The notes beneath the pieces were generated by a model. It did not search any database. It was given only the letters and a program-made list of their open reading frames with translations, and had not been told where the DNA came from. Below, piece after piece: positions 3,397-54,127 of a DNA stretch of 64,000 bases. Source of the DNA: Vicinamibacterales bacterium (GTDB taxonomy: Bacteria > Acidobacteriota > Vicinamibacteria > Vicinamibacterales > UBA8438); the NCBI GenBank assembly GCA_965249105.1, contig OZ252219.1, positions 4,823,108 to 4,887,107 on the forward strand, read 5' to 3'. Position numbers and translations under genes: made by a program. How positions within the stretch are numbered: the first letter of the stretch is position 1; every line of letters begins with the position of its first letter.

Positions 3397-3501
3397 ATCA
3401 GGGTGCCGCGACTCCCGCGTCGGCCCAGCCGTAGCTCAACTCCTTCGGCCCGGCCCGCCCAGCCGTAGCGCGCCCTGTGTTGAGCTTCGGCGCGCGAAGG
3501 C

Positions 3502-3740
3502 TGGCGGTGGGGGCAGTCTCGAGCGAACCCGTCTCGCACGTCGATAAGCGAATAAAAGACGAATATTGGATGGGTCCCTACTATGTCCCGCTTCAAACTC
3601 CTTGACCGGCTCAGGGGGAGTGTCTTGGCGGGTAGCGTCGGTACCTCCGCATCGGAGGATAAGTTGTTGTCCTCGCGCGAGTCGCATCCCGGGGTCATCC
3701 CGGATTAAAACTTGGGTCATGCCTAGCCGGCCGTCACCGG
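3502..3740. repeat. R-end copy A (core TGGCGG + about 210-bp R arm + 29-bp extension), no L arm
   Basis: Near-identical to 38716-38964; left flank differs from all L arms. Confidence 0.95.
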
Positions 3741-43106: not shown

Positions 43107-43510
43107 CTACGCGGCGATCGACTCGTCCCTCCACACGTGGTCAGCATCGAACGCCGTGCGGTTCTTGACGACGGCGAACGCGTAGTGCAGCAGTTTGGTC
43201 ATGCAGGCCCCGATCGCCTGCATCGGAGGCAAGGGACGCGTGACTCGCTGCGTGAGGCGCTCGTAGTGGGCTTTGAGGCGCGGGTTATGGCGGAGGGACG
43301 ACAGCGTGGCCATGTAGACCACGGCGCGCAGCTGGGCCCGCCCGCGCTTGGTGATCGGCGTCCGTCCAGCGTGCTGGCCGCTTTCCCGTCTCGAGGGCTG
43401 CAGGCCGGCCAGCTTCACCAACTGCCGGCCATGCTGGTATCTGTCGAACGGGCCAATCTCAGCGATCAGCCCGGCGATGGTGATCCACCCGATCCCCGGC
43501 AGCGTGGCGA
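43107..43510 (-). pseudogene. IS110-family transposase C-terminal fragment
   Basis: LPGIGWITIAGLIAEIG, AGLxPSRRESG, ITKRGR; 5' part cut off at the L-end repeat. Confidence 0.9.
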
Positions 43511-43617
43511 CTGGAGCGCGCACAGTGAGGTCGATCAAAAGTTTTAATCCGGGAGGCACTTGCAAAACCCTGCGCGTAGAGAAGTTTTTTGGCGGCTTGC
43601 GCACGGTGCGGGCCACA

Positions 43618-43965
43618 TCACACAGGCGTGAGCTGACGAAGCAGGCGCTCAGTCATCCGCAGCGACAACGTCTCCATTTCCACAACGATTCGGTCTAGCT
43701 GTCGGCCGTTCTCGATCCAGTCCCGGACACGCTCGGCTTGCTGCTCGGTGAGACGGACGGTGACGGTCTTGCCGCGGACCTTGCGGGTCCACTGATAGTA
43801 CGGCCCGTGTAGCTGCGGGGGCGTCGCTTGGCAGCGGCAGTTCGGCTTGCCGCACGGCATGAAACGTTGCACGAGGCTGCCACGTCGAAGCAATCCCACC
43901 TCAGCGACGGTGCGCTTGAGCGCGTCGTAGCGCTGCGTGTCGGTTGTTGGGTCACGGGTGGGCAT
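43618..43965 (-). CDS. DUF6788-like passenger protein
   Basis: RGSL...CGKPNCRC...HGPYYQWT...GKT. Confidence 0.8.
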   Translation of the reverse strand: MPTRDPTTDTQRYDALKRTVAEVGLLRRGSLVQRFMPCGKPNCRCQATPPQLHGPYYQWTRKVRGKTVTVRLTEQQAERVRDWIENGRQLDRIVVEMETLSLRMTERLLRQLTPV

Positions 43966-44028
43966 GTCGTGCCATTCGGTCTAGCAGTTGTTATACTGCT
44001 AGACCTGGCCCCAGGAGTCAAGAAGAAA

Positions 44029-45168
44029 ATGAGCCGTCTCCGAGAGTGCTTCGCACCACACTGGCTGTCCATTCAGACCGCACTCTTTCCATGGCTGGAG
44101 GAAGAGCTGGGACCACTCACGGAGAAACAGCAGCAGTTCGTGCAGACCTTGGAGGTCATCCGGGTCGAGGACCACATTCCCCGACGCGTCCGCATGCCCG
44201 GCCGACCTCGCAAGGATCGCGCGGCCGTCGCCCGCGCGTTTGTCGCCAAGGCCGTCTACGACCTGCCGACGACACGCAGGCTGCTCGATCGGCTGGCCAC
44301 CGATCGACCCTTGCGCCGGATCTGCGGCTGGGAGACTAGGCGCCAGGTCCCGAGCGAATCCTTGTTCTCACACGCCTTCGACGAGTTTGCGACCACGCAG
44401 TTGCCTCTGCGCGTGCACGAGACGGTCATCCAGAAGACGCATCACGACCGATTGGTCGGTCATCTCTCGCGAGACTCCACCGCGATTGCGGCACGCGAGA
44501 AGCCCGCCACGAAGGACAAGCCGCCCGCGCCCTCGCAGCGGAAGCGGGGACGACCGAAGAAGGGAGAGGAGCGCCCTCACGAGCCCACGCGTCTGCAGCG
44601 GCAGGGCACCATGACCAAGCCGGAGATGCTCGCTGATCTCCCGACGGCCTGCGATGTCGGGACGAAAAAGAACAGCAAGGGCTACAAGGAAACCTGGGTC
44701 GGCTACAAGCTGCATATCGATGTGGCCGATGGCCAGATCCCCATCAGCTGCCTACTGACCACTGCCTCCCTTCATGACAGCCAGGCCGCTATTCCGCTCG
44801 CAACCCTGTCCGCCGAGCGGAGCACCAATCTGTACGACGTGATGGACGCCGCCTACGATGCGCAGGAGATTCGGGCACACAGCCGTTCGCTGAACCACGT
44901 TCCGCTGATCGACATCAACACGCGCCGCAACACGGCGCTGAAGGAAGAACGCCAAGCGGAAGCTCGGCGCCGACAGGTGCTTGGCTTCCAGCTTCCGGAG
45001 GACGTTCGCTACAACGAACGCACGGCCGTTGAGCGGGTCAATGGCCGCCTCAAGGACGAATTCGGCGGTCGCCATGTCCGGGTCCGCGGCCCGGCGAAGG
45101 TGATGTGCCACTGCATGTTCGGCGTGCTCGCACTCACCGCTGACCAACTCATGCGCCTCGTCACGTAG
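44029..45168 (+). CDS. DDE transposase (YREK motif)
   Basis: RDSTAI, GYKLH, DAAYD, YNERTAVERVNGRLK; start refined to MSRLRE. Confidence 0.95.
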   Translation: MSRLRECFAPHWLSIQTALFPWLEEELGPLTEKQQQFVQTLEVIRVEDHIPRRVRMPGRPRKDRAAVARAFVAKAVYDLPTTRRLLDRLATDRPLRRICGWETRRQVPSESLFSHAFDEFATTQLPLRVHETVIQKTHHDRLVGHLSRDSTAIAAREKPATKDKPPAPSQRKRGRPKKGEERPHEPTRLQRQGTMTKPEMLADLPTACDVGTKKNSKGYKETWVGYKLHIDVADGQIPISCLLTTASLHDSQAAIPLATLSAERSTNLYDVMDAAYDAQEIRAHSRSLNHVPLIDINTRRNTALKEERQAEARRRQVLGFQLPEDVRYNERTAVERVNGRLKDEFGGRHVRVRGPAKVMCHCMFGVLALTADQLMRLVT

Positions 45169-45990
45169 CCATCGGTGACGTGATGACCTCGATCCACCCA
45201 GCTGCCTACGCGCAGAAGGCGGCAGCTCTTGCCAGACCCTCGCCCAATGCCCGGGCGGGCCTGCGTCTCCTCATGAATCGGTGCCTCGATCCCGGTGCCC
45301 TGGGCCCGAGTGACCAGTTTGCACCCAAACCCTGACGCTTGTTCCACTGTCGGCCAGGAGTTTTGCAAGTGCCTCCCGGGATAATCCGGGATCATCCGGG
45401 ATGACCCCGGGATGCGACTCGCGCGGGCGCAACGATTGACGGGGAGGGCGACAGAATTGGGCCGTGCCGAGGCCCGATCCGCCGTCCGTGTGAGGGGTGT
45501 CCCGGGAGGCTCTCACGTGCGCCCCACCCGGACCACGGAAACCGGCCCGCGAGACGATCGCCCGCATACCGGCGCCACCTCGCTCCAGACGTGTCTCGTC
45601 TTCTCGGCGCCGCGCCCGCGACCGCTGAAATCGCCTGAATCCAACGAGGAAATCGGGGGCAACCCTCGAGCGATCCCGAAGTGCGAGCATCGGCAGGACT
45701 GGGTGGCGGAGGGGGCAGTCTCGCGCGAACCCGTCTCGCACGTCGCCAAGCGAATAAAAGACGAATATTTGATGGGTCCCTACTATGTCCCGCTTCAAAC
45801 TCCTTGACCGGCTCAGGGGGAGTGTCTTGGCGGGCAGCGTCGGTACCTCCGCATCGGAGGAGAAGTTGTTGTCCTCGCGCGAGTCGCATCCCGGGGTCAT
45901 CCCGGATTATCCCGGCTTATCCCGGGAGGCACTTGCAAAACCCTGCGCGTAGAGAAGTTTTTTGGCGGCTTGCGCACGGTGCGGGCCACA

Positions 45991-46338
45991 TCACACAGGC
46001 GTGAGCTGACGAAGCAGGCGCTCAGTCATCCGCAGCGACAACGTCTCCATTTCCACAACGATTCGGTCTAGCTGTCGGCCGTTCTCGATCCAGTCCCGGA
46101 CACGCTCGGCTTGCTGCTCGGTGAGACGGACGGTGACGGTCTTGCCGCGGACCTTGCGGGTCCACTGATAGTACGGCCCGTGTAGCTGCGGGGGCGTCGC
46201 TTGGCAGCGGCAGTTCGGCTTGCCGCACGGCATGAAACGTTGCACGAGGCTGCCACGTCGAAGCAATCCCACCTCAGCGACGGTGCGCTTGAGCGCGTCG
46301 TAGCGCTGCGTGTCGGTTGTTGGGTCACGGGTGGGCAT
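45991..46338 (-). CDS. DUF6788-like passenger protein
   Basis: Identical to 43618-43965. Confidence 0.8.
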   Translation of the reverse strand: MPTRDPTTDTQRYDALKRTVAEVGLLRRGSLVQRFMPCGKPNCRCQATPPQLHGPYYQWTRKVRGKTVTVRLTEQQAERVRDWIENGRQLDRIVVEMETLSLRMTERLLRQLTPV

Positions 46339-46401
46339 GTCGTGCCATTCGGTCTAGCAGTTGTTATACTGCTAGACCTGGCCCCAGGAGTCAAGAAGAA
46401 A

Positions 46402-47541
46402 ATGAGCCGTCTCCGAGAGTGCTTCGCACCACACTGGCTGTCCATTCAGACCGCACTCTTTCCATGGCTGGAGGAAGAGCTGGGACCACTCACGGAGAAA
46501 CAGCAGCAGTTCGTGCAGACCTTGGAGGTCATCCGGGTCGAGGACCACATTCCCCGACGCGTCCGCATGCCCGGCCGACCTCGCAAGGATCGCGCGGCCG
46601 TCGCCCGCGCGTTTGTCGCCAAGGCCGTCTACGACCTGCCGACGACACGCAGGCTGCTCGATCGGCTGGCCACCGATCGACCCTTGCGCCGGATCTGCGG
46701 CTGGGAGACTAGGCGCCAGGTCCCGAGCGAATCCTTGTTCTCACACGCCTTCGACGAGTTTGCGACCACGCAGTTGCCTCTGCGCGTGCACGAGACGGTC
46801 ATCCAGAAGACGCATCACGACCGATTGGTCGGTCATCTCTCGCGAGACTCCACCGCGATTGCGGCACGCGAGAAGCCCGCCACGAAGGACAAGCCGCCCG
46901 CGCCCTCGCAGCGGAAGCGGGGACGACCGAAGAAGGGAGAGGAGCGCCCTCACGAGCCCACGCGTCTGCAGCGGCAGGGCACCATGACCAAGCCGGAGAT
47001 GCTCGCTGATCTCCCGACGGCCTGCGATGTCGGGACGAAAAAGAACAGCAAGGGCTACAAGGAAACCTGGGTCGGCTACAAGCTGCATATCGATGTGGCC
47101 GATGGCCAGATCCCCATCAGCTGCCTACTGACCGCTGCCTCCCTTCATGACAGCCAGGCCGCTATTCCGCTCGCAACCCTGTCCGCCGAGCGGAGCACCA
47201 ATCTGTACGACGTGATGGACGCCGCCTACGATGCGCAGGAGATTCGGGCACACAGCCGTTCGCTGAACCACGTTCCGCTGATCGACATCAACACGCGCCG
47301 CAACACGGCGCTGAAGGAAGAACGCCAAGCGGAAGCTCGGCGCCGACAGGTGCTTGGCTTCCAGCTTCCGGAGGACGTTCGCTACAACGAACGCACGGCC
47401 GTTGAGCGGGTCAATGGCCGCCTCAAGGACGAATTCGGCGGTCGCCATGTCCGGGTCCGCGGCCCGGCGAAGGTGATGTGCCACTGCATGTTCGGCGTGC
47501 TCGCACTCACCGCTGACCAACTCATGCGCCTCGTCACGTAG
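46402..47541 (+). CDS. DDE transposase
   Basis: Differs from copy 1 by one residue (LLTAAS vs LLTTAS). Confidence 0.95.
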   Translation: MSRLRECFAPHWLSIQTALFPWLEEELGPLTEKQQQFVQTLEVIRVEDHIPRRVRMPGRPRKDRAAVARAFVAKAVYDLPTTRRLLDRLATDRPLRRICGWETRRQVPSESLFSHAFDEFATTQLPLRVHETVIQKTHHDRLVGHLSRDSTAIAAREKPATKDKPPAPSQRKRGRPKKGEERPHEPTRLQRQGTMTKPEMLADLPTACDVGTKKNSKGYKETWVGYKLHIDVADGQIPISCLLTAASLHDSQAAIPLATLSAERSTNLYDVMDAAYDAQEIRAHSRSLNHVPLIDINTRRNTALKEERQAEARRRQVLGFQLPEDVRYNERTAVERVNGRLKDEFGGRHVRVRGPAKVMCHCMFGVLALTADQLMRLVT

Positions 47542-47791
47542 CCATCGGTGACGTGATGACCTCGATCCACCCAGCTGCCTACGCGCAGAAGGCGGCAGCT
47601 CTTGCCAGACCCTCGCCCAATGCCCGGGCGGGCCTGCGTCTCCTCATGAATCGGTGCCTCGATCCCGGTGCCCTGGGCCCGAGTGACCAGTTTGCACCCA
47701 AACCCTGACGCTTGTTCCACTGTCGGCCAGGAGTTTTGCAAGTGCCTCCCGGATTAAAACTTTTGATCGAGCTCAGCGGATTATGTTCCGC

Positions 47792-47851
47792 GAGCAAGGC
47801 ATCGAAAAATATCTTGGCTCCGGCATGATCCGGGGCATCGGCCCGGTCTAC
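47792..47851 (+). pseudogene. RecD2-like helicase internal fragment
   Basis: My translation: EQGIEKYLGSGMIRGIGPVY. Confidence 0.7.
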
Positions 47852-49539: not shown

Positions 49540-50144
49540 GTTTGATCCGAGATATTCCGGAACTATCCGAAACACGTGAGACGTGCGATGCTCGTGGGCA
49601 CAACACCTGACGGGGAGGGCGACAGGATTGGGCCGCGCCGATCCCGATCCGACGTCCGCCTTCTGCGGGAGGGGTGTCCGAGAAAGCTCTCACGCAGCGC
49701 CCAACCCGGACCACGGAACCCGGCTCGCGAGACGATCACGCGGACACCAGCCGCCACCTCGCCCCAGGCGCGACTCACCTCCCCGGCGCCGTGCCCGTGC
49801 CCGCTGAAATCGCCTGAATCCAACGAGGAAATCGAGGGCAACCCTCGAGCGATCCCGAAGTGCGAGCATCGGCAGGACTGGGTGGCGGAGGGGGCAGTCT
49901 CGCGCGAACCCGTCTCGCACGTCGCCAAGCGAATAAAAGACGAATATTTGATGGGTCCCTACTATGTCCCGCTTCACACTCCTTGACCGGCTCAGGGGGA
50001 GTGTCTTGGCGGGCAGCGTCGGTACCTCCGCATCGGAGGATAAGTTGTTGTCCTCGCGCGAGTCGCATCCCGGGGTCATCCCGGATGATCCCGGCTTATC
50101 CCGGATTAAAACTTTTGATCGAGCTCAGCGGATTATGTTCCGCG
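49540..50144. repeat. L-core-R unit D (core 49883), left terminal repeat degenerate
   Basis: R arm near-identical to unit C including the 32-bp extension; L arm similar to 53858-54037. Confidence 0.9.
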
Positions 50145-50618
50145 CTTTGATGACATCGAGAAAGTGATCCGATCATGAATGCGGATTGGCCGACTGCCAG
50201 ATGCATACTCTGTGGCTCCGGAGAAGACATCACAACGGAACATATAATTCCCGACTGCCTCGCCGGAAAACTCGTAGCGAATTTCCTGTGCAAAGACTGC
50301 AATTCAAGGCTTGGCCATGGTGCCGAAAGCGCTGTCAGGAACGACCCAAAGGTTCGGCTATTAATTGAACGCCTAGTCGGTGAACAACCTCACCTCGCCA
50401 ATAAATTACAGAAGCGGCTACCGTACATAGGCCGCAGTGAGCAAGGCGAAATCCCTGGATACATGCGAGACGGAAGGTTCGTTCCGAAGGAACAACCGCT
50501 GGACGATGGATCGTTTATCTTTCCGGAGGACCTATCTCTATATCATTCATCATGAGGCACTTGCAAAACCCTGCGCGTAGAGAAGTTTTTTGGCGGCTTG
50601 CGCACGGTGCGGGCCACA

Positions 50619-50966
50619 TCACACAGGCGTGAGCTGACGAAGCAGGCGCTCAGTCATCCGCAGCGACAACGTCTCCATTTCCACAACGATTCGGTCTAGC
50701 TGTCGGCCGTTCTCGATCCAGTCCCGGACACGCTCGGCTTGCTGCTCGGTGAGACGGACGGTGACGGTCTTGCCGCGGACCTTGCGGGTCCACTGATAGT
50801 ACGGCCCGTGTAGCTGCGGGGGCGTCGCTTGGCAGCGGCAGTTCGGCTTGCCGCACGGCATGAAACGTTGCACGAGGCTGCCACGTCGAAGCAATCCCAC
50901 CTCAGCGACGGTGCGCTTGAGCGCGTCGTAGCGCTGCGTGTCGGTTGTTGGGTCACGGGTGGGCAT
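50619..50966 (-). CDS. DUF6788-like passenger protein
   Basis: Identical to the other copies. Confidence 0.8.
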   Translation of the reverse strand: MPTRDPTTDTQRYDALKRTVAEVGLLRRGSLVQRFMPCGKPNCRCQATPPQLHGPYYQWTRKVRGKTVTVRLTEQQAERVRDWIENGRQLDRIVVEMETLSLRMTERLLRQLTPV

Positions 50967-51029
50967 GTCGTGCCATTCGGTCTAGCAGTTGTTATACTGC
51001 TAGACCTGGCCCCAGGAGTCAAGAAGAAA

Positions 51030-52169
51030 ATGAGCCGTCTCCGAGAGTGCTTCGCACCACACTGGCTGTCCATTCAGACCGCACTCTTTCCATGGCTGGA
51101 GGAAGAGCTGGGACCACTCACGGAGAAACAGCAGCAGTTCGTGCAGACCTTGGAGGTCATCCGGGTCGAGGACCACATTCCCCGACGCGTCCGCATGCCC
51201 GGCCGACCTCGCAAGGATCGCGCGGCCGTCGCCCGCGCGTTTGTCGCCAAGGCCGTCTACGACCTGCCGACGACACGCAGGCTGCTCGATCGGCTGGCCA
51301 CCGATCGACCCTTGCGCCGGATCTGCGGCTGGGAGACTAGGCGCCAGGTCCCGAGCGAATCCTTGTTCTCACACGCCTTCGACGAGTTTGCGACCACGCA
51401 GTTGCCTCTGCGCGTGCACGAGACGGTCATCCAGAAGACGCATCACGACCGATTGGTCGGTCATCTCTCGCGAGACTCCACCGCGATTGCGGCACGCGAG
51501 AAGCCCGCCACGAAGGACAAGCCGCCCGCGCCCTCGCAGCGGAAGCGGGGACGACCGAAGAAGGGAGAGGAGCGCCCTCACGAGCCCACGCGTCTGCAGC
51601 GGCAGGGCACCATGACCAAGCCGGAGATGCTCGCTGATCTCCCGACGGCCTGCGATGTCGGGACGAAAAAGAACAGCAAGGGCTACAAGGAAACCTGGGT
51701 CGGCTACAAGCTGCATATCGATGTGGCCGATGGCCAGATCCCCATCAGCTGCCTACTGACCGCTGCCTCCCTTCATGACAGCCAGGCCGCTATTCCGCTC
51801 GCAACCCTGTCCGCCGAGCGGAGCACCAATCTGTACGACGTGATGGACGCCGCCTACGATGCGCAGGAGATTCGGGCACACAGCCGTTCGCTGAACCACG
51901 TTCCGCTGATCGACATCAACACGCGCCGCAACACGGCGCTGAAGGAAGAACGCCAAGCGGAAGCTCGGCGCCGACAGGTGCTTGGCTTCCAGCTTCCGGA
52001 GGACGTTCGCTACAACGAACGCACGGCCGTTGAGCGGGTCAATGGCCGCCTCAAGGACGAATTCGGCGGTCGCCATGTCCGGGTCCGCGGCCCGGCGAAG
52101 GTGATGTGCCACTGCATGTTCGGCGTGCTCGCACTCACCGCTGACCAACTCATGCGCCTCGTCACGTAG
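51030..52169 (+). CDS. DDE transposase
   Basis: Same protein as copy 2. Confidence 0.95.
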   Translation: MSRLRECFAPHWLSIQTALFPWLEEELGPLTEKQQQFVQTLEVIRVEDHIPRRVRMPGRPRKDRAAVARAFVAKAVYDLPTTRRLLDRLATDRPLRRICGWETRRQVPSESLFSHAFDEFATTQLPLRVHETVIQKTHHDRLVGHLSRDSTAIAAREKPATKDKPPAPSQRKRGRPKKGEERPHEPTRLQRQGTMTKPEMLADLPTACDVGTKKNSKGYKETWVGYKLHIDVADGQIPISCLLTAASLHDSQAAIPLATLSAERSTNLYDVMDAAYDAQEIRAHSRSLNHVPLIDINTRRNTALKEERQAEARRRQVLGFQLPEDVRYNERTAVERVNGRLKDEFGGRHVRVRGPAKVMCHCMFGVLALTADQLMRLVT

Positions 52170-52991
52170 CCATCGGTGACGTGATGACCTCGATCCACCC
52201 AGCTGCCTACGCGCAGAAGGCGGCAGCTCTTGCCAGACCCTCGCCCAATGCCCGGGCGGGCCTGCGTCTCCTCATGAATCGGTGCCTCGATCCCGGTGCC
52301 CTGGGCCCGAGTGACCAGTTTGCACCCAAACCCTGACGCTTGTTCCACTGTCGGCCAGGAGTTTTGCAAGTGCCTCTCATGTTAAAAAAATGTCCAAGCG
52401 GGCGGGCAGAGAACTCTTCGGGGTTACGCCTGATCAACTCAGATGCCTACCTTCCGGCGGCTCAGTTGAAGCGGCATCCGGGCTTTTTATTACAAACTGG
52501 ACTCTAGATTCAATTGAACCTGACCTCAGCGGACCAGAGATTGACCCGATAGTTCCGGCGACAATTGCGTTCGAGTTTCTCGCATTGCATTGCGGTATTA
52601 AAATCTATGAAAACCCGCCGCAGTTTGCGCTAATTCGGCGTCAGCTCATTGATGGCAAGTTGTCTGGAGATGAGATTCGTGTGCAGCGCCTGGAGGCGCA
52701 GAATAGGCAGCTCTTCCACGGACTCGTATTTGAAGGCAACAGCCCAGGAGCGCGAGTCCAGATACGGCTTTTTGGCTCTCTGGCTTTTCGCGTGGAATTT
52801 AACCGTTGGTCCATCAGCGGCACTCGTTGTGGTTACACTCACGACTTAGTGTCTGAAGATGACGGCTTTTGGGTCGATGCATAGATTGGTGGTCGAGGAG
52901 GAGGCGATAATTTCGTTCCATTACCGTGACACTCAACACGCTAGATGTTAAAAACACCTAGATTTATTATATGTTTTTAGATCAACGGTCT

Positions 52992-53395: not shown

Positions 53396-54043
53396 GTTTT
53401 AATCCGGGATCAGCCGGGATCAGCCGGGATGACCCCGGGATGCGACTCTCGCGGTCGCAACGACGTACGGGGACGCGGCGGATCCAGCGTGGCGCGTTGC
53501 GCTCGACGACGAGGCGTTCGTCGTCGATGCCCGGGTCGGTGTACGGTCGGTCGTGCAGCCCGGCGTGGATCACGCGCACCAGCTTGTGGGCGGTGGCCAG
53601 GATCCATCCCGGTAGCCGACGCTCTGTGGGCGCAACGACTGACGCCGAGTCCAGCGCCGGGACGCCACGTTGCACCGGCCGGTGCAGGTCCAGCGCGCCG
53701 CGCGTCATGGTCAGTTTCTGTGACGTGGGCTCGGCCGCCGCGCCGCGAGAAGTTCTTGCAGCGGCATATTCCGGGACTTGCCGGGCTCCATCCCGGAATC
53801 CGACGCTCCGCGGACCCGACGACTGACAGGGGTCAGTCGTACATGGCTCTCTCAAAACCCCGGACCACCGAACCTGGCTCGCGAGACGATCACGCGGACA
53901 CCGGCCGCCACCTCGCCCCCGGCGCGACTCACCTCCCCGGCGCCGCGCCCGTGACCGCTGAAATCGCCTGAATCCAACGAGGAAATCGGGGGGCACCCCT
54001 CGAGCGATCCCGAAGTGCGAGCATCGGCAGGACTGGGTGGCGG
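53396..54043. repeat. L arm F: terminal repeat 53396-53470, unrelated insert, L body 53858-54037 abutting the tRNA CCA end
   Basis: GTTTTAATCCGGGAT(CAGCCGGGAT)2GACCCCGGG; ...GCATCGGCAGGACTGGG|TGGCGG. Confidence 0.9.
53474..53610 (-). pseudogene. IS110-family transposase extreme C-terminal fragment
   Basis: ATAHKLVRVIHAGLHDRPYTDPGIDDERLVVERNAPRWIRR. Confidence 0.6.
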
Positions 54044-54127
54044 AGGGACTGGGATTCGAACCCAGGGAACGCTTTCACGTTCAACGGTTTTCAAGACCGC
54101 CGCCTTCAACCGCTCGGCCATCCCTCC
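54038..54127 (-). tRNA. tRNA-Ser(UGA)
   Basis: GGAGGGA/TCCCTCC acceptor, CTTGAAA loop, long variable arm, GGTTCGAATCC, discriminator G, encoded CCA. Confidence 0.98.

Follow-up and report, generated by a model that had tools for sequence, protein, structure and literature searches.

How does a recombination site come to lie between two copies of one insertion sequence (IS), and has the resulting block moved as a unit? The question is posed by a stretch of 64,000 nucleotides from a Vicinamibacterales bacterium (Acidobacteriota; assembly GCA_965249105.1, contig OZ252219.1, positions 4,823,108 to 4,887,107 of the forward strand), hereafter the window, in which one of the 550-bp units repeated in this genome, unit C, carries an IS in each of its two terminal arms. 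The best explanation, to which a probability of roughly 80% can be given, is that unit C is a junction resembling an attP (attachment) site and that the IS-att-IS arrangement stems from two independent insertions at its arm boundaries, a by-product of a target hotspot in which nothing moved as a unit. A hotspot confined to the arm boundary is well supported, and the block itself is best seen as an ordinary by-product.

The central part of the locus is organized as follows, in window positions.

43520-43552, no strand: outer tip (class c, GCACAGTGAGGTCGATCAAAAGTTTTAAT) of the left arm of unit C, with the left CCGG at its end (43549-43552).
43553-45375, plus strand: IS copy 1, 1823 bp, with 16-bp perfect terminal inverted repeats and the G1209A variant.
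45376-45433, plus strand: left arm of unit C, with the CCGG copy, the intact 10-bp iterons CCGGGATAAT CCGGGATCAT CCGGGATGAC CCCGGGATGC... and inverted repeat I2.
45527-45713, plus strand: segment X of unit C, with homology to the sequence that immediately follows the 3' end of four tRNA-Ser genes.
45868-45925, minus strand: right arm of unit C, an inverted copy of the left arm with a CCGG copy at its end (45922-45925).
45926-47748, plus strand: IS copy 2, 1823 bp, with the same sequence as the genomic consensus.
47749-47792, no strand: right CCGG and outer tip of the right arm of unit C, class a ATTAAAACTTTTGATCGAGCTCAGCGGATTATGTTCCGCG; direct repeat D11, identical to 50099-50144.

A preliminary description of the locus had proposed two direct IS copies flanking unit C, a CCGG duplication at each of them and nothing but a 550-bp body of left arm, core and right arm in between. 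Sequence comparison and end searches bear this anatomy out to the base: the interval is exactly 550 bp long (45376-45925), and CCGG stands on both sides of copy 1 (43549-43552 and 45376-45379) and of copy 2 (45922-45925 and 47749-47752). Both copies have the ends GAGGCACTTGCAAAAC...GTTTTGCAAGTGCCTC, identified by exact searches over the whole genome, which is a single contig of 6.11 Mb with 63.6% G+C. They differ by a single base at IS position 1209 (A at window position 44761, G at 47134), and the A variant is also found in the copy at genome position 1,182,530. With their palindromic junctions, copies 1 and 2 alone are compatible with a duplication of 0, 2 or 4 bp. The first two values are ruled out by copies outside the arms: five non-unit copies are flanked by clean 4-bp duplications of unrelated sequence (ATAG, ACTC, ACCC, GGTT and TCAT), and these fix both the IS ends and the duplication length. 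In all, 4-bp duplications are seen at 21 complete copies, inclusive of these five.

The genome contains 20 full-length and approximately six partial copies of the IS (about 26), which deviate from the consensus by 0-2 nt over 1823 positions. The element was not found in 30 related genomes; because the copies are near-identical and the relatives lack it, its spread is a recent burst of a recently arrived element. Sixteen copies have both flanks in a unit arm, with CCGG duplicated, and three more have one arm flank. All 19 arm copies sit at one and the same place, TTTTAA(T/C)|CCGG|GATAA, which is the first CCGG past the A/T-rich outer segment, where that segment (AAAAGTTTTAAY) meets the first iteron (AAAAGTTTTAAY|CCGG|GATAAK). 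No IS copy occupies the second to fourth CCGG in any of the ~147 arms. The left end of the IS points outward in nine arm copies and inward in eight, and the outer flank shared by any two occupied arms is no longer than 150 bp; both orientations and distinct outer flanks show that the arm junctions are separate events and not copies of one. The element thus behaves as a target-specific IS, with repeated independent insertions at the same position far above chance. The preliminary description had regarded the iterons in general as a hotspot and had proposed a tabulation of all genomic targets. The table displays a strong bias towards the CCGG of the arms: the unit ends do attract the IS, with 19 of the ~26 copies, but only at the outermost CCGG. 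Two of the IS copies combine one arm flank with one unrelated flank, and a reciprocal inversion was rejected as their origin, as the flanking tetranucleotides do not match.

The nature of the unit emerges from its association with tRNA-Ser genes. Approximately 147 arm ends are present in the genome, clustered in regions that touch these genes. Of the five tRNA-Ser genes, four (gga twice, cga and tga) have on their 3' side ~185 bp with homology to unit positions ~150-340, beginning within the gene at its last 8-10 nt. In unit C, segment X ends in a core that resembles the 3' end of a tRNA in degenerate form (TGGCGGAGGG, 45704-45713). Two features of the window delimit the array to which unit C belongs.

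54038-54127, minus strand: tRNA-Ser(tga), anchor of the array of stacked elements, with an X segment and a left arm after its 3' end.
3499-3707, plus strand: distal half att site, consisting of core, Y segment and right arm only, which closes the 50.5-kb array.

The half site begins exactly at the tRNA-like core and is built as expected for the distal limit of a series of integrated elements, which argues for an att site. The att label attached to the unit in the preliminary description is therefore borne out by the tRNA-Ser 3' homology and by the distal half site: the core is shared with the tRNA 3' end and half sites bound the array. The iterons are seen as 10-bp phased repeats in inverted arms. 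The tRNA-Ser evidence favours the att reading of the unit body. On these sequence grounds the unit is probably a junction of attP type at which stacked, decayed elements meet; its iteron arms lie ~250 bp to either side of the putative crossover. With 90-97% similarity among themselves and representatives in three relatives of the same genus, the units are older than the IS. Between 3499-3707 and 54038-54127 they all share one orientation, whereas large arrays elsewhere in the genome are mixed. Beyond a conserved AAGTTTTAAY, the arms carry one of approximately seven recurrent tip classes of 25-40 nt, against which unrelated gene fragments abut. The classes combine freely across the two sides of the unit (b-d, b-a, b-c and, in unit C, c-a), and the class c tip of the left arm of unit C recurs outside ~20 other arms.

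The choice of the outermost CCGG was traced to the target preference of the IS family. Relatives of the IS were gathered at 80 loci (76-80% identity), mostly in metagenome-assembled genomes of Vicinamibacterales; a 4-bp duplication is present at 45 of the 55 measurable loci, and these 45 yielded a target profile that is independent of the genome under study. The consensus is symmetric, AAA(-11..-9)..T(-4)..C(-1)|NNNN|G(+1)..A(+4)..TTT(+9..+11). Positions -4/+4 are T/A in 58 of 90 cases (p = 2e-24), positions -1/+1 are C/G, again in 58 of 90 (p = 3e-9), and positions 9 to 11 on either side are A/T-rich (p < 1e-11), whereas the duplicated 4 bp are free of base preference. In a leave-one-out application of the profile, 91% of the true sites fall within the top 1% of their own 4-kb flanks. 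Applied to the genome of interest, the profile places the arm boundary among the best 0.007-0.03% of positions, as against 4-29% for the second CCGG of the arms; the outermost CCGG is thus the one favoured by the intrinsic preference of the family. Three of the five non-arm targets are in the top 0.05%, and one IS copy outside any unit lies in the window.

50554-52376, plus strand: IS copy 3, outside any unit, with a TCAT duplication.

Under the family profile, the target of copy 3 belongs to the top 0.0013% of genome positions. Arms also differ in occupancy at a finer level: those with CC in place of AA at positions -12/-11 are never occupied (0 of 34, compared with 19 of 104; Fisher p = 0.004). 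A different organism, represented by ENA ERZ26167216, harbours many copies of an IS with a 100% identical transposase, and its unique flanks are at most 88% identical to this genome. Ten IS loci were inspected there: the duplication is a clean 4 bp at six and 5 bp at one, all at diverse sites that match the consensus. Most are non-arm sites, and one copy stands against an att-like arm, at the same CCGG. The consensus is probably read by the transposase itself.

Is the double occupancy of unit C more than chance? When the IS copies were removed in silico, 29 complete (paired) units were left, 23 of which are unhit, four hit once and two hit twice. If insertions were independent, 0.55 double hits would be expected against the two observed, with P(>=2) = 0.11; as the count fits independent insertions, the double hit needs no special cause. 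The second doubly hit unit forms the only other IS-unit-IS block of the genome.

Genome positions 1470179-1473869, direct copies: second IS-unit-IS block, with 45 bp between the copies, in which three left-arm iterons are joined to the last right-arm iteron.

This block has lost the unit core to a deletion and is still in place. The preliminary description had envisaged that the IS-att-IS block of unit C could move the att site as a composite transposon and had proposed a search for it elsewhere, which returned only this 45-bp counterpart. The structural hallmark of a composite is present, in that two IS copies with intact outer ends bracket a segment. Both copies in unit C are full-length and direct, their transposase genes are intact, and joint use of the outer ends is possible in principle. 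The hallmarks of mobility are absent from the genome: the 4.2-kb block exists only once, and neither it nor its counterpart stands at a fresh site flanked by a duplication of its own. Moreover, each of the two blocks lies between the outer tips of its own unit, those of classes c and a for unit C, from which it follows that neither has moved. Movement as a composite thus lacks support, and an IS-att-IS block that is, or once was, an active composite transposon carrying a complete att site is extremely unlikely.

The preliminary description had held that both terminal repeats of unit C are probably disabled, a view for which there is no support: because the duplication regenerates CCGG on the inner side, all iterons and the entire left arm-core-right arm body are intact between the copies, and only the outer tip of ~12-40 bp is displaced, by 1.8 kb. 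No genomic IS copy is flanked by two outer tips, which indicates that the att site has not been lost by recombination between flanking copies.

A probable course of events can be outlined from these observations. Repeats of attP type, unit C being one of them, stand between the decayed integrative elements of a stack at a tRNA-Ser gene. The newly arrived 1823-bp IS, with its DDE transposase and DUF6788 accessory gene, has spread to ~26 copies, probably guided by the apparent preference of its transposase for a symmetric, locally A/T-rich target, AAA..T..C|NNNN|G..A..TTT. The boundary AAAAGTTTTAAY|CCGG|GATAAK suits this preference and is offered ~147 times in the genome, with two inverted occurrences per complete unit. 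One insertion into each arm of unit C would give IS-att-IS, with iterons and core retained.

Several points weigh against this account. The family profile leaves the size of the bias unexplained: of the positions with a score no lower than that of a typical arm, 16 of 97 arm sites are occupied, compared with 2 of 1239 non-arm clusters (p = 2e-17). The resulting ~100-fold excess of arm sites over equal-scoring sites exceeds the profile, and something more is needed; candidates are a finer specificity of the IS, a feature of the arm (a bound protein or bending), local hopping and selection against insertions elsewhere. The motif TTAAYCCGGGWTA has no occurrence outside arms, which makes sequence and context inseparable in this genome. 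In addition, the two arms may not both have been hit in unit C itself. Finally, four sequencing runs hold the sequence as short Logan unitigs that are broken at each repeat edge, and none of these spans the tandem.

The first two points bear on the possibility that context steers the transposase, either through a protein bound to the iterons (the arm-binding domain of an integrase, or an excision factor) or through a bend beside the A-tract. The ~100-fold excess speaks for such steering, and so does the position of every arm insertion at the edge of the iteron array, with none inside. Nevertheless, the family consensus predicts the same CCGG, and arms of this kind were not noted around the targets from which it was drawn. 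Occupancy also varies between arms whose sequences diverge only at -12/-11, which is evidence for a role of the DNA sequence. No intact cognate integrase was found, the recombinase sequences beside the tips being C-terminal fragments of a tyrosine recombinase. Guidance by context is accordingly a possible but unlikely explanation of the hotspot. A bolder version, in which a bound recombinase or accessory protein, or the DNA shape that these produce, draws the IS to iteron arrays and two hits thereby turn a complete attP-like site into a portable IS-att-IS module, is very improbable; if true, such a module could bring a landing place for tRNA-Ser elements to a new replicon.

The third point corresponds to a scenario in which the doubly hit unit was built by recombination, a unit with an IS in its left arm being joined to one with an IS in its right arm through site-specific exchange at the core or homologous exchange in the 430-bp body. 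Units have been shuffled, as seen from the free combination of tip classes across sides; their orientation is mixed in the large arrays; and the two half-arm IS copies imply that rearrangements occur at IS copies. Set against this, the additional step is unneeded, given that double hits are within the independent expectation, all units in the array of unit C have one orientation and no reciprocal product is identifiable. This origin of unit C is therefore rather unlikely, and each IS would still have entered its arm at the hotspot, so that the principal conclusion would stand. Two independent insertions into unit C itself are the probable course.

With ~26 IS copies and ~147 arms, the genome is rich in repeats, and the last point raises the suspicion that the tandem is a repeat-induced assembly artefact. 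Yet a single closed 6.1-Mb contig, presumably of long-read origin, resolves all repeats, and the two IS copies are told apart by a base of which each variant is found in other copies. The two arms and the two outer tips also differ from each other, and a second, differently built IS-unit-IS block is present in the genome. An artefact is thus very unlikely.

The element is a generic insertion sequence by its terminal repeats, transposase gene, fixed duplication length and copy number. Copies 1 and 2 carry the same two genes.

43618-43965, minus strand: 115-aa DUF6788 gene of IS copy 1, oriented divergently to the transposase gene (Pfam PF20586, E = 4.5e-33).
44029-45168, plus strand: transposase gene of IS copy 1, 379 aa from ATG, with DUF772 and DDE_Tnp_1 domains.
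45991-46338, minus strand: DUF6788 gene of IS copy 2.
46402-47541, plus strand: transposase gene of IS copy 2.

The transposase matches DDE_Tnp_1 (62.5 bits) and DUF772 (41.6 bits) above the cut-offs of these Pfam models. Its match to the IS1182 family (NCBIfam NF033551) amounts to 89.7 bits in three stretches, below the equivalog cut-off of 270 bits, and the IS5 family models NF033581, NF033579 and NF033580 give 77.5, 53.3 and 37.3 bits, below curated cut-offs of 110-140 bits, that for the 77.5-bit match being 140. Since the scores fall under the curated cut-offs of both families, the label is kept at IS5/IS1182-like. At least 8000 homologs of the transposase exist, nearly all of 379 aa, two of which are labelled 'IS5 family transposase' by one source. 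The related elements at the 80 loci are ~1.9 kb long with ends GAGCCTCTTGCGAAAA, and a DUF6788 homolog is found at the same place in 64 of them; a literature search returned no paper with the term DUF6788. The DUF772 N-terminal domain, the DDE_Tnp_1 catalytic domain and the short terminal inverted repeats are shared with IS5 and IS1182, and IS5 itself makes a 4-bp target duplication, as does the IS described here. The differences lie in the size of the present element (1.8-1.9 kb) and in its conserved divergent DUF6788 gene, as well as in its target consensus, which is unlike the YTAR of IS5. For annotation, these results fix the ends, the duplication length and the symmetric target consensus of a large unnamed group of Acidobacteriota insertion sequences. 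A palindrome, GGTCTAGCAG..CTGCTAGACC (43978-44005), is located between the divergent starts of the DUF6788 and transposase genes and is a candidate operator.

How does the arrangement compare with known systems? In Bacillus thuringiensis, IS231, a member of the IS4 family, is reported to occupy the terminal inverted repeats of Tn4430 (Mahillon et al. 1987, described in PMC5604178; Hallet et al. 1991 and 1994, listed in PMC6199540). This is the closest parallel: a DDE insertion sequence is found repeatedly at one position in the terminal repeat of another element, in an IS-element-IS arrangement that leaves the inner element whole. The two cases differ in the enzyme and the duplication (IS4 family and 10-12 bp for IS231; DDE_Tnp_1 with DUF772 and 4 bp here) and in the target, which for Tn4430 is the end of a Tn3-family element and here an att-type arm of tRNA-Ser elements with ~147 occurrences on a single chromosome. 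The target of IS231 has a symmetric consensus flanked by bendable A/T-rich DNA. A second group of parallels is provided by the IS1111-attC elements and group IIC-attC introns, which insert in the attC sites of integrons (PMC11187229, PMC3001079). They too specialise in a recombination site that is repeated across an array of mobile cassettes or islands. These systems rely on an RNA-guided DEDD recombinase or on retrohoming and insert in one orientation with no duplication, whereas the present IS has a DDE transposase, enters its targets in either orientation, duplicates 4 bp and is found at unrelated sites as well. Tn903 and Tn10 resemble the block in that two copies of one IS bracket a segment; here, in contrast, there is no sign of joint movement, and the bracketed segment is a 550-bp recombination site devoid of genes.

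The locus is therefore of interest as a quantified case of an IS that concentrates on the recombination sites of another family of mobile elements, and it illustrates how IS-site-IS blocks can arise as by-products. The interpretation of the 550-bp units as att junctions, at which elements stacked on tRNA-Ser genes meet, also gains independent support. Should the ~100-fold excess prove to depend on context, the system would exemplify cross-talk between an integrase site and a DDE transposase.

Some further observations concern the unit and its surroundings. No RNA families were found in the unit. The idea that the unit had itself been inserted in CCGG was discarded, as the corresponding empty palindromic site, TTAATCCGGATTAA, is absent from the genome. 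On the left of unit C, the C-terminal half of an IS110, unique in the genome, abuts the tip (window 43107-43530); this fragment was considered as part of the repeat and rejected, given that only the ~33-nt tip recurs. One of the tyrosine recombinase fragments stands directly outside a class-a tip (genome 1537086-1537340). An intact integrase of 418 aa is encoded at genome position 2,833,577 and was dismissed as the cognate enzyme, being 9 kb from any arm. An open frame at genome positions 1536972-1537526 (minus strand) starts in the Y segment, with the same ATG as at window position 45785, and reads on across the right arm and its class-a tip; beyond these it encodes the C-terminal third of a tyrosine recombinase (HDLRH...RYAHL). 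Fragments of this type number three, none of which is full length.

Other observations concern the present-day spread of the IS. In one sequencing run (run X1), low-depth contigs join the IS end, at window junctions 45375/45376 and 47748/47749, to other A/T-rich flanks outside this assembly, with a depth of 7-12 where unique flanks have 39-97. Continued movement of the IS, or polymorphism for it, is possible in the sampled population. Two contigs of ERZ26167216, of 845 and 483 kb, also share with this genome an IS630-type element at 97.5% identity and a unit at ~95%, a pattern that suggests a recent exchange of mobile elements between the two co-occurring bacteria.

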